Source of the DNA: a virus
DNA: 56,457 nt
Strand: one strand, 5' to 3'
Virus record (IMG/VR): IMGVR_UViG_3300042990_000014
Coordinates: 1-56,457 of that record
Each line of letters opens with the position of its first letter. Within the stretch, counting starts at the first letter, position 1. Made by a program: the position numbers and the translations under genes. Under the pieces are notes generated by a model. That model ran no database searches and was not told the origin of the DNA. It worked only from the letters and a program-made list of their open reading frames with translations. Of the stretch, positions 386-1,148 are shown one piece after another.

Positions 386-420
386 GGGGAGTGTCAGTTC
401 GCTGACACTCCCCTCTTTAT
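386..420 (+). terminator. rho-independent terminator (repeat family T, copy 1)
   Basis: 12-bp stem GGGGAGTGTCAG/CTGACACTCCCC with TTCG loop, followed by TCTTTAT. The same hairpin recurs at 743 and 54225. Confidence 0.8.
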
Positions 421-422
421 CG

Positions 423-450
423 TTGACACCTAACAGGTGCCTGTTAGACT
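423..450 (+). promoter_or_regulatory. sigma-70-like promoter with embedded palindromic operator (class 1, copy 1)
   Basis: TTGACA (423-428), perfect inverted repeat CTAACAGG-TG-CCTGTTAG (430-447), TAGACT (445-450). Confidence 0.7.
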
Positions 451-477
451 AAGGGCACACCTACCGAGGGAGTCACC

Positions 478-735
478 ATGAACACCACCATCCAGTTCGG
501 CGCGATGGCCGTGCAGTTCCTCGCCGAGGGTGCGCTGATCGAGCGCGGCGGTGCGGTGCTCACGGTGGCGTTCGTGGATGACCAGTTCGCCTACTCCCGC
601 AGCTTGGCGGACTACGGCACCTTCAACCTGTTCGCGCGGGACGAGGCGGGGCGGATGCAGAAGTTCACCCTTGCGCGCAACACCATGGTCACGCTCCTGG
701 AGGAGCTGACCGAGGTGGAGGCGGGCTGTCTCTAG
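478..735 (+). CDS. hypothetical protein (85 aa)
   Basis: ORF track. GAGGGAG RBS 7 nt upstream of ATG. Bracketed by promoter 423-450 and terminator 743-777. Confidence 0.8.
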   Translation: MNTTIQFGAMAVQFLAEGALIERGGAVLTVAFVDDQFAYSRSLADYGTFNLFARDEAGRMQKFTLARNTMVTLLEELTEVEAGCL

Positions 736-742
736 CTCCGCC

Positions 743-777
743 GGGGAGTGTCAGTTCGCTGACACTCCCCTCTTTTT
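743..777 (+). terminator. rho-independent terminator (repeat family T, copy 2)
   Basis: Identical GGGGAGTGTCAG-TTCG-CTGACACTCCCC hairpin followed by TCTTTTT. Confidence 0.8.
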
Positions 778-779
778 CA

Positions 780-807
780 TTGACACCTAACATGTACCTG
801 TTAGACT
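780..807 (+). promoter_or_regulatory. class 1 promoter/operator, copy 2
   Basis: TTGACA 780-785, CTAACATG-TA-CCTGTTAG (one mismatch in the palindrome), TAGACT 802-807. Confidence 0.65.
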
Positions 808-848
808 TTCCCTATAAGCAAGAGGGAAACCACCTGAGGGAGCTCGAC

Positions 849-1067
849 ATGACGCAGAACCAGATCATCCGCCCCGCAGTCGCCGTGATCGACCTAGACG
901 CCTGGACGGTCACCCTGGACGATGGCAGCGCGGTGGAGATCCTGGAGACGGATACCGCCTGGGACCGTCGCACGATGGACCTGCTGCTGGTGGCCGAGGG
1001 AAGCGACCCGTGGCGGGTTACGGCGTCCACCACGTTGCTCCGGCTCCCGCTTCCCGCGATGCCGTAG
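849..1067 (+). CDS. hypothetical protein (72 aa)
   Basis: The ORF-track frame 780-1067 begins inside the promoter, so I chose the ATG at 849, which is preceded by GAGGGAG. Confidence 0.7.
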   Translation: MTQNQIIRPAVAVIDLDAWTVTLDDGSAVEILETDTAWDRRTMDLLLVAEGSDPWRVTASTTLLRLPLPAMP

Positions 1068-1084
1068 TGAGTCCGGATGCCCTG

Positions 1085-1112
1085 GAAGGCCCCCGAGGGG
1101 GCCTTCTTTTTT
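1085..1112 (+). terminator. rho-independent terminator
   Basis: GAAGGCCCC-CGAG-GGGGCCTTC hairpin followed by TTTTTT. Confidence 0.75.
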
Positions 1113-1117
1113 GCCCC

Positions 1118-1148
1118 TTGACAGTACCTAACAGGTACCTGGTAGACT
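1118..1148 (+). promoter_or_regulatory. class 1 promoter/operator, copy 3
   Basis: TTGACA 1118-1123, CTAACAGG-TA-CCTGGTAG, TAGACT 1143-1148. The ATG at 1155 lies only 6 nt after the -10, suggesting a leaderless transcript. Confidence 0.6.

Follow-up and report, generated by a model that had tools for sequence, protein, structure and literature searches.

Repeated promoter cassettes in the early arm of a probable lytic actinophage carry a candidate operator and border exchanged orphan genes

The IMG/VR virus record IMGVR_UViG_3300042990_000014 was analysed over its whole length of 56,457 nucleotides (hereafter the window) with respect to a repeated element of its early region, in which a terminator-like hairpin, a promoter and a palindrome stand together. 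Bases 1-127 recur exactly at 56331-56457 as a direct overlap of the ends, so that the contig is circularly closed (or terminally redundant) and is a complete genome of 56,330 unique bases. By third-position G+C the genome divides into two divergent arms that start at 51660 and 51721. The leftward arm opens with the gene of a predicted tandem ribbon-helix-helix (RHH) protein (51259-51660), followed by a primase-polymerase/helicase gene (49077-51242) and then by the structural genes. The rightward, or early, arm runs from 51721 over the contig junction to about 9.1 kb and holds small orphan genes, a DUF6011 protein, a helicase, a PD-(D/E)XK nuclease, transfer RNAs (tRNAs) and a WhiB-like protein. 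Since the contig is closed, the copies of the element near 54 kb and 0.4 kb adjoin within this one arm; the gene starting near 56166 likewise runs over the junction and resumes at 128-363. We find that eight predicted promoters of the early arm share an 18-bp dyad, a candidate operator for a phage-encoded repressor that is most likely the RHH protein, and that the cassettes formed by these promoters are junctions at which orphan open reading frames (ORFans) are gained, lost and swapped between related phages.

Promoters, palindrome and hairpins of the early arm

The pattern CTAACAGGNNCCTGTTAG, searched with up to 3 mismatches, has 8 matches in the window (at 430, 787, 1128, 1737, 5661, 51694, 53158 and 54271) against 0.09 +/- 0.29 expected in dinucleotide-preserving shuffles, none of 100 of which reaches 8. 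Also, a 28-nt hairpin occurs in three copies (386, 743 and 54227) where 0 are expected, and an unguided repeat search recovers the palindrome and hairpin families independently (D5 and D6). A weight-matrix search, as proposed in the first-pass annotation of this DNA, was run with a log-odds matrix built from 20 sites of related phages only, to avoid circularity. It found exactly the same eight window sites, at 17-34 bits, with every other window position at 8.1 bits or below and a top score of 12.3 bits in 50 simulated sequences (first-order Markov, same dinucleotide content). The repeat described in that annotation is therefore real, and all of its coordinates are correct. All eight sites lie within the first 10.3 kb of the rightward arm and are oriented along it. 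Hairpin and promoter stand together in four composite copies, three of which are 77-100% identical over 86 nt. The features concerned are as follows.

386-413 (+): terminator-like hairpin GGGGAGTGTCAG-TTCG-CTGACACTCCCC, then TCTTTAT; -24.4 kcal/mol, z = -5.1; would end the unit from the promoter near 54271
423-450 (+): putative promoter/operator 1; -35 TTGACA 423-428, palindrome 430-447, -10 TAGACT 445-450, spacer 16 nt; would serve ORFan 478-735
743-770 (+): second, identical copy of the hairpin, then TCTTTTT; -24.4 kcal/mol, z = -6.3; would end the single-gene unit 478-735
780-848 (+): putative promoter/operator 2 with leader CTATAAGCAAGAGGGAA...GAGGGAG; -35 780-785, palindrome 787-804, -10 802-807; would serve ORFan 849-1067
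1084-1107 (+): different terminator-like hairpin GGAAGGCCCC-CGAG-GGGGCCTTCT, then TTTTTT; -21.2 kcal/mol, z = -2.2; would end the unit 849-1067
1118-1148 (+): putative promoter/operator 3; -35 1118-1123, palindrome 1128-1145, -10 1143-1148, spacer 19 nt; would serve the genes at 1155-1743
1730-1757 (+): putative promoter/operator 4, degenerate (3 mismatches); TTGACG, 16-nt spacer, TAGACT; would serve helicase 1819-4659 and nuclease 4656-5660
5652-5681 (+): putative promoter/operator 5, degenerate; TTGCGC, 18-nt spacer, TAGGGT; upstream of the tRNA array
51684-51714 (both strands): putative divergent promoter/operator; palindrome 51694-51711, + strand -10 TAGAGT 51709-51714, - strand -10 TAGGGT (complement of 51691-51696)
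53149-53178 (+): putative promoter/operator 6; TTGACA, 18-nt spacer, CATACT, palindrome 53158-53175, no upstream hairpin; would serve the DUF6011 gene 53223-53921 and the gene 53985-54218
54225-54256 (+): third copy of the hairpin, stem extended to 14 bp, then TTTT; -29.0 kcal/mol, z = -5.9
54264-54291 (+): putative promoter/operator 7; TTGACA, 16-nt spacer, TAGACT, palindrome 54271-54288; would serve a unit of about 7 genes from 54320 over the junction to 363

Each site is laid out as a TTGACA-like -35, a spacer and CTAACAGGTACCTG(T/G)TAG-ACT. The dyad is 18 bp long (9+9) with consensus half-sites CTAACAGGT and ACCTGTTAG. It fills the spacer, and its last three bases double as the first three of the -10 hexamer TAGACT. 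Its right arm also carries a TG two bases before the -10, which gives a TGn extended -10 (TGnTAGACT). Five sites pass a consensus scan at 9-10 of 12 positions with the TG present, and the other three (1128, 5661 and 51694) have TGnTAG(A/G)(C/G)T with a weaker or 19-nt-spaced -35. In sequence, then, the eight sites resemble extended -10 promoters of the sigma-70 or actinobacterial primary-sigma type. Four sites (430, 787, 1737 and 54271) have a spacer of 16 nt, two (5661 and 53158) one of 18 nt and two (1128 and 51694) one of 19 nt, so the palindrome is constant in position relative to the -10 and variable relative to the -35. It may be noted that the first-pass annotation had set the palindrome exactly between the two hexamers and overlapping the -10; the overlap holds, while a fixed placement against the -35 does not.

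Four of the eight promoters are preceded by a hairpin and a T-run, and the other four have no hairpin and directly adjoin, or run into, the stop codon of the gene before them; at 1737 the stop codon of the gene 1558-1743 falls within the left arm of the palindrome. The four hairpins have stems of 10-14 bp and folding energies of -21 to -29 kcal/mol and start 8-17 nt past a stop codon, which are the features of predicted intrinsic (Rho-independent) terminators. Scan and folding thus bear out the composite of terminator-like hairpin, promoter and palindromic element that had been noticed from the letters. One of the hairpins, at 1084-1107 with its T6 run, precedes the promoter at 1118-1148, which had been listed as lacking the repeated hairpin. 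At sites 1128 (ATG at 1155) and 51694 (gene at 51721) the ATG follows exactly 6 nt past the -10. This gap is conserved in related phages, among them the L004 contig (introduced below) at its orthologue of the 1118-1148 site, and leaderless messenger RNAs are predicted at 1155 and 51721. The transcription units implied by these sites are listed below in the order of the arm.

51721-53145: about 4 genes
53223-54218: 2 genes
54320 to 363: about 7 genes
478-735: 1 gene
849-1067: 1 gene
1155-1743: 3 genes
1819-5660: 2 genes
from about 5990: tRNA array

On this division only 2 of the 8 units (478-735 and 849-1067) consist of a single gene. The remainder are operons of 2 to 7 genes or the tRNA array, and with upstream terminator-like hairpins at 4 of 8 promoters the earlier description of cassettes that insulate individual genes is overstated.

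Conservation of the dyad in related phages

Searches with the primase-polymerase locus and pattern scans of IMG/VR gave three related contigs, to which a more distant fourth was added. The labels used for them are as follows.

3300020015_000001: L004, L022, L030
3300047322_000465: L003, L025
3300046663_000222: L023, L026
3300037721_000036: L028, more distant, primase-polymerase 42% identical

An alignment-based locus search returned the same three related contigs and nothing further. Also, an exact 21-mer of the promoter had no match in IMG/VR, though a looser pattern did find the relatives, and a metagenome scan gave only the contig already known and one chance match at 37% GC.

Most early proteins of the close relatives share 50-75% identity with their window counterparts, and the dyad is kept at orthologous positions: at the divergent RHH site and upstream of the DUF6011 gene, of 54320, of 1155 and of the helicase gene (for the last, site 1730-1757, in L004, L023 and L025). 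Three further dyad sites are found in L028. Over 28 sites, dyad positions 1-3, 6, 13, 14 and 17 are invariant. The left arm is conserved as strongly as the right although it has no promoter role on the transcribed strand, and the only variation tolerated, A/C at position 4, is mirrored at position 15. Equal conservation of the arms with mirrored variation is a signature of recognition by a protein of two-fold symmetry, and with both half-sites conserved alike, promoter function alone is not enough as an explanation. At the orthologous DUF6011 promoters the -35 differs in position by 2 nt from one genome to another and the dyad does not move. The dyad thus has the properties expected of a repressor operator within a promoter, as it is symmetric, overlaps core elements and is conserved beyond what the promoter needs.

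Other relatives carry similar hexamers around different spacers. In the more distant L005 (IMGVR_UViG_3300023078_000003) the arrangement is TTGACA-TCCGAGTGACATCGGG-TAGACT, which has the same 16-nt frame and a different conserved spacer, and the promoter-like repeat of Actinoplanes phage phiAsp2, TTGACACTTCACAGTCAAGCCTGTAATGT in about 20 copies, has yet another. The spacer is therefore lineage-specific, as expected if it is read by a phage-encoded factor. The L005 copies lie at 8203-8230 and 14067-14094, with a TGACAT direct repeat 11 bp apart as the spacer, and one of them is at a divergent site beside a small gene that heads the primase-helicase arm. In a scan of one genome each of 185,579 species the exact dyad occurred six times, each time singly within its stretch and outside the actinobacteria. 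These single matches give no support for a host regulon or for prophages, and the absence from actinobacterial genomes argues against a host regulon. We also know of no actinobacterial operator (LexA, IdeR, DasR, CIRCE and others) that resembles the dyad.

A candidate binding protein

The gene that best fits a binder of the palindrome is the one already singled out in the first-pass annotation.

51259-51660 (-): predicted tandem ribbon-helix-helix protein, 133 aa; leading candidate for binding the palindrome

Over 44 residues the halves of this protein share 43% identity (E = 6e-6), so the internal duplication is real. Against the Pfam family RHH_1 the window protein scores 18.4 bits, below the cut-off of 20.5, the L026 orthologue 23.6 (above it) and the L028 homologue 18.5. 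The gene adjoins the divergent dyad in the window, L004, L003/L025, L026 and the distant L028, where a homologue with a single RHH stands at the same place. No other DNA-binding gene was seen to adjoin a dyad in each of these five syntenic genomes. At the divergent site the plus strand leads to the gene at 51721 and the minus strand to the RHH and primase-polymerase arm, and the reverse-strand hexamers are as follows.

Window: TAGGGT
L004: TAGGCT
L026: TAGACT
L025: TAGAGT

The form TAGNNT is thus present on both strands in 4 of 4 genomes, whereas at the seven one-way sites of the window the reverse hexamer never ends in T. A proper reverse -10 at the divergent site suggests that one dyad is common to two back-to-back, overlapping extended -10 promoters, one of them for the RHH gene itself. 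Position, symmetry and synteny together point to the RHH product as the most likely binder of the dyad.

A homologue search with the RHH protein gave 2 matches in 5.8 billion proteins, a family too small for a covariation test, and a sequence search of the PDB gave no meaningful match, with no detectable similarity to solved RHH proteins.

It is somewhat unlikely, in our estimate, that the dyad is an operator bound by a protein other than the RHH protein, such as the helix-turn-helix (HTH) protein at 18194-18646, the WhiB-like protein at 7911-8231, an orphan early protein or a host regulator. The HTH gene (+, 150 aa) has a weak HTH_23 match and lies on the opposite strand within the leftward structural arm, just upstream of the tape measure gene. 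The product of 7911-8231 is clearly a WhiB. Family assignments are lacking for most early proteins, among which a DNA binder could hide, and the evidence for the RHH protein is positional only. Yet the HTH product has a homologue in phiAsp2 pas26 (42% identical), whose gene is as oddly placed, and the promoter motif of phiAsp2 is a different one; also, the matrix scan of the window placed no dyad near the HTH gene. WhiB-like proteins work through a sigma factor and not through palindromes, which counts against the WhiB-like protein as the binder. The absence of the exact dyad from actinobacterial genomes weighs against a host regulator, and the five-genome adjacency of the RHH gene against the others.

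Cassettes as junctions between genomes

The ORFs 478-735 and 849-1067 are flanked by near-identical cassettes and are unrelated to each other, so the repetition of the cassette is not a gene duplication, and tandem duplication as the source of the 357-bp spacing was ruled out on the same ground. The same promoter and leader, CYATAAGCAAGAGGRAA...GAGG, stand before five unrelated ORFs in the window, in L004 (two) and in L025/L023. This leader is about 35 nt long (CYATAAGCAAGAGGRAAnCYAC..GAGG) and is found at 808-848 of the window, at 14636 and 17272 of L004 (reverse strand) and at 3890 of L023; a second leader, GTAAGGCCGAACGnCACACCACGCYGAGGGAG, is found ahead of the DUF6011 gene in 4 of 4 genomes. 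Such conserved leaders may carry a translational or RNA-level signal.

In L023 and L025 the sequence on the right side of the cassette that precedes the 478-735 orthologue is 100% identical for 8,571 bp. To the left of that cassette the two contigs have diverged, with only two short matches of 81-87% identity, and the breakpoint falls in the leader, about 25 bp past the -10. Two units of cassette and ORFan in the window (423-770 and 780-1107) are missing from L004, and L004 has two others that are absent from the window, each bounded exactly by cassettes. The earlier suggestion of a copy-and-paste module is upheld by the shared promoter and leader before unrelated ORFs and by breakpoints and indels at cassette borders. 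The cassettes are mosaic junctions at which ORFans are gained, lost and swapped; recombination between them is the probable mechanism.

Other features of the genome

The window has a G+C content of 67.5% and carries the genes of a tailed phage, whose structural part resembles phiAsp2 and Rosebush-like siphoviruses.

43011-44525: terminase
32421-34223: portal
25953-27692: major capsid protein
15160-18123: tape measure protein

The closest sequenced phage is phiAsp2 (NC_005885), with a capsid protein 61% identical, a relation seen at the protein level only; a near-identity nucleotide search with 6 kb of the early arm against the sequenced phage collection gave zero matches. PHROG scans of 20 early proteins gave a single weak RusA-like match, and the genes flanked by cassettes had none. 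No integrase, recombinase, partition gene or immunity cassette was found among the ORFs scanned, and with no integrase among them this uncultivated actinophage is probably lytic.

The tRNA array occupies 5680-6440, 3' of the degenerate promoter at 5652-5681, and has three tRNAs above the Rfam cut-off.

5995-6063: tRNA (Rfam)
6116-6183: tRNA (Rfam)
6357-6436: tRNA (Rfam)

ARAGORN made one call only in this array, an 81-nt tRNA-Ala(GGC), and T-arm-like segments GGTTCGA(A/G)TCC near 5846 and 6328 were not called as tRNAs. Just downstream of the primase-polymerase gene (- strand), the non-coding region 48700-49020 is iteron-like. Within its roughly 320 bp it has 12 of the 41 GTCGCA/TGCGAC hexamers of the genome, in both orientations and often as (C)TAGTCGCAAG, and it is probably a replication origin. 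Between it and the primase-polymerase gene lies a terminator-like hairpin (49027-49065), and in L003 and L004 the corresponding place bears instead a ninth palindrome-bearing promoter (CTAACAGGTATATGGTAG).

In the helicase gene 1819-4659 a LAGLIDADG domain (residues 250-305) splits the ResIII/DEAD helicase at about 1937-2967 of the window. L023 and L025 align to 1843-1936 and from 2968 onward only, so that about 1 kb is absent from them, and L004 has the insert, which points to an intein variably present among close relatives. Also, several repeats of about 200 nt (families D1-D3, 61-78% identity) lie within the gene 21703-24300 (-), which encodes an 865-aa tail fibre-like protein. Glycosyltransferase-like genes, all on the minus strand, lie at 27751-28590, 29221-30144 and 9185-9835, two of them between capsid and portal-associated genes; one shares 48% identity with the 'glucosyltransferase' pas35 of phiAsp2. 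Their products may glycosylate the virion or the cell wall.

Discussion

The reading that we prefer, at a probability of about 0.6, is that the eight early promoters with their shared dyad are repressed together by a phage protein, most likely the RHH protein, and that the cassettes also act as patches of homology. On entry, host RNA polymerase with its primary sigma factor would fire eight strong extended -10 promoters, and the hairpins would terminate four of the units. The RHH protein, made from the divergent promoter, would then bind the dyads as two pseudo-dimers and cover the TGn and TAG of the -10. This would block the contacts of RNA polymerase with the extended -10 and the -10 and turn down the whole early arm together with the RHH gene. 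As that gene shares the dyad at 51694-51711, the protein would also be autoregulatory, and the early regulon would be shut off jointly once the dimeric or pseudo-dimeric binder had accumulated. Being repeated, the cassettes of 30-90 bp would in addition supply homology for unequal and inter-phage recombination, by which ready-fitted ORFans are exchanged, and a captured gene would be wired automatically into the early regulon. Promoter activity, terminator activity and the choice of repression rather than activation are all predictions from the sequence.

Several observations count against this. The U-tracts after the hairpins are short or interrupted (TCTTTAT, TTTT), and spacers of 16 and 19 nt are suboptimal for promoters of the sigma-70 type. 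The intergenic regions as a whole are about 76-79% conserved between relatives, and the dyad does not rise dramatically above its orthologous flanks. What ties the RHH protein to the dyad is synteny and position only; the two occur together in all close relatives, which makes their covariation uninformative; the AlphaFold2 monomer model of the protein is poor (predicted local distance difference test score of 64.7, all-helical) and was not used; and the L005 counterpart is not recognised as an RHH protein by Pfam, so that the link of operator and protein there is anecdotal. As for the cassettes, some indels between the window and L004 lack cassette borders, for example that at 55029-55540.

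Three alternatives besides that of another binder have to be weighed. The dyad may have no dedicated binder, being a duplicated strong promoter that copy-and-paste or gene conversion keeps alike, with a symmetry that is incidental or derived from a bidirectional -10. Cassettes have clearly spread through duplication and recombination, the extended -10 falls on the right arm, and both arms act as -10 elements at the divergent site. We nevertheless regard it as quite unlikely, since at 7 of the 8 window sites the left arm has no promoter role and is still conserved equally, with mirrored variation; the dyad persists at orthologous sites despite protein identities of 50-75%, and in L028; and relatives with the same -35 and -10 bear other conserved spacers.

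It is very unlikely that the dyad binds an activator which, in the manner of MerR, remodels non-optimal spacers (16 or 19 nt) and switches the early genes on. Such a protein would suit a dyad within the spacer and spacers of 16, 18 or 19 nt that are never 17. But no MerR-family protein was found among the scanned ORFs, and the dyad overlaps the TAG of the -10 and the TGn, which an activator must leave free. Also, promoters with 9-10 of 12 consensus positions in agreement and with an extended -10 should fire unaided, and early phage promoters must function before any phage protein is made. Finally, that the palindrome is not an operator but the core site of an integron-like, site-specific recombination that moves gene cassettes is scarcely credible: whole units of cassette and ORFan do differ between relatives and perfect 9+9 palindromes resemble recombinase core sites, but the scan of the ORFs turned up neither an integrase nor a recombinase, the only breakpoint that was resolved falls in the leader, some 25 bp past the dyad and not within it, and the fixed overlap with the -10 is accounted for by transcription and not by recombination.

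If repression by the RHH protein is correct, the whole early programme of a lineage known only from metagenomes would be timed by a single small protein through a single 18-bp site, and the composite cassettes, which the papers drawn on here describe for T4-like phages only, would be a recurrent solution for trying new small genes without disturbing their neighbours, with an off-switch built in. More tentatively, and with some doubt, we suggest that the lineage has independently evolved a gene-capture system that joins a terminator, a promoter, sometimes a leader with a ribosome-binding site, and the operator of the RHH shut-off protein, in the manner of the stem-loop elements of T4-like phages discussed below. 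A captured ORFan would then at once be insulated, strongly expressed and enrolled in a timed early regulon, and the operators would serve both as regulatory code and as homology for exchange, like the 'linker' sequences of the classical modular theory. For phage mosaicism the cassettes offer a concrete case in which recombination at conserved 'linker' sequences can be examined. They also offer compact, well-defined candidate parts for high-GC actinobacteria: a promoter with an extended -10, an operator and a terminator with a UUCG loop, in leaderless and leadered variants. They are of value on three counts: the comparative case for an early regulon under one operator is clean, the tandem RHH protein is a plausible regulator, and gene flux bounded by cassettes is seen here outside the T4-like phages.

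Comparison with known systems

The structural module is common to the window and phiAsp2, and phiAsp2 has a promoter repeat of its own, TTGACACTTCACAGTCAAGCCTGTAATGT, with an embedded inverted repeat TTGAC-N8-GTCAA. The copies occur in both orientations, are clustered at 32-36 kb and stand before single small genes, several of them adjoining hairpins; the repeat is not annotated in the GenBank record NC_005885. Examples in the record (L001/L002) are at the following positions.

32094
32694
33052
33817
34382
35019

The sequence of the spacer or operator is wholly different there, and phiAsp2 has no homologue of the RHH protein or of the primase-polymerase. A similar arrangement is that of the actinophage phiC31, in which there are multiple near-identical early promoters, several of them after terminators, and a repeated conserved inverted repeat (CIR) of 17 bp bound by the c repressor; that phage is temperate, and its c repressor is not known to be an RHH protein.

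Stoperators are 13 bp long, are spread over the whole genomes of temperate phages and are mostly not inside promoters. Like the sites described here, those of the Cluster A mycobacteriophages L5 and Bxb1 (PMC9283540, PMC6550527) are short intergenic sites in many copies in an actinophage, oriented with transcription, and provide genome-wide control by a single phage protein, a role for which the RHH protein is a candidate. In PMC9283540, Cluster A stoperators are described as asymmetric and bound by a monomeric immunity repressor that also stops elongation. The present site differs as a symmetric 18-mer that is always inside a promoter and confined to the early arm. Identity with Cluster A stoperators was rejected on these grounds and because no integrase or immunity module was found in the scanned ORFs.

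A moron is an autonomous unit of promoter, gene and terminator inserted in a temperate phage and expressed from the prophage. The units 423-770 and 780-1107 do combine promoter, gene and terminator-like hairpin, but were rejected as morons because they lie in the early arm and share the early operator, and no lysogeny genes were found among the scanned ORFs.

The logic of the proposed shut-off resembles that of P22 Arc or lambda Cro. F-plasmid TraY is a known case of a tandem RHH protein. In the immI region of P22, Arc represses the divergent, overlapping promoters Pant and Pmnt through one operator (PMC2724298). Here too an RHH gene stands beside an operator-like dyad embedded in two predicted divergent, overlapping promoters, its own included, and repression would follow by analogy. 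The difference is that Arc has one operator, against eight copies over a 10-kb early arm here, and that the present protein has its tandem RHH in one chain.

The first-pass annotation had thought the arrangement unusual for phage early regions. It is not unusual in kind, in view of the repeat of about 20 copies in phiAsp2 and of the promoter-early stem-loops (PeSLs) of T4-like myoviruses, in which a stem-loop terminator and an early promoter stand upstream of ORFans and mediate modular shuffling (Arbiol et al. 2010, PMC2839356; Comeau et al. 2014, PMC4122927). Mini-circles that form when flanking cassettes recombine also belong to the picture of PeSLs. As with PeSLs, a small composite cassette, in which a stem-loop terminator is joined to a strong sigma-70-like early promoter, is repeated. 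The copies lie for the most part directly before ORFans, and cassettes border the indels and replacements that distinguish close relatives, for whose shuffling they would provide the homology. The cassettes of the window thus have the composite structure, the proximity to ORFans and the position at indel borders that mark PeSLs. They occur in a high-GC actinophage with siphovirus-like genes instead of a T4-like myovirus, and are therefore an analogue of PeSLs and not members of the described set. Their number is also smaller, with eight promoters, four of them with a terminator-like hairpin, against about 50 PeSLs. Every promoter has the 18-bp dyad, a putative operator, and some have a leader, neither of which is mentioned for PeSLs in PMC2839356 and PMC4122927. 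The PeSL is the closest described kind, and what sets the present cassettes apart is the putative operator, the leader and the unrelated high-GC host phage.

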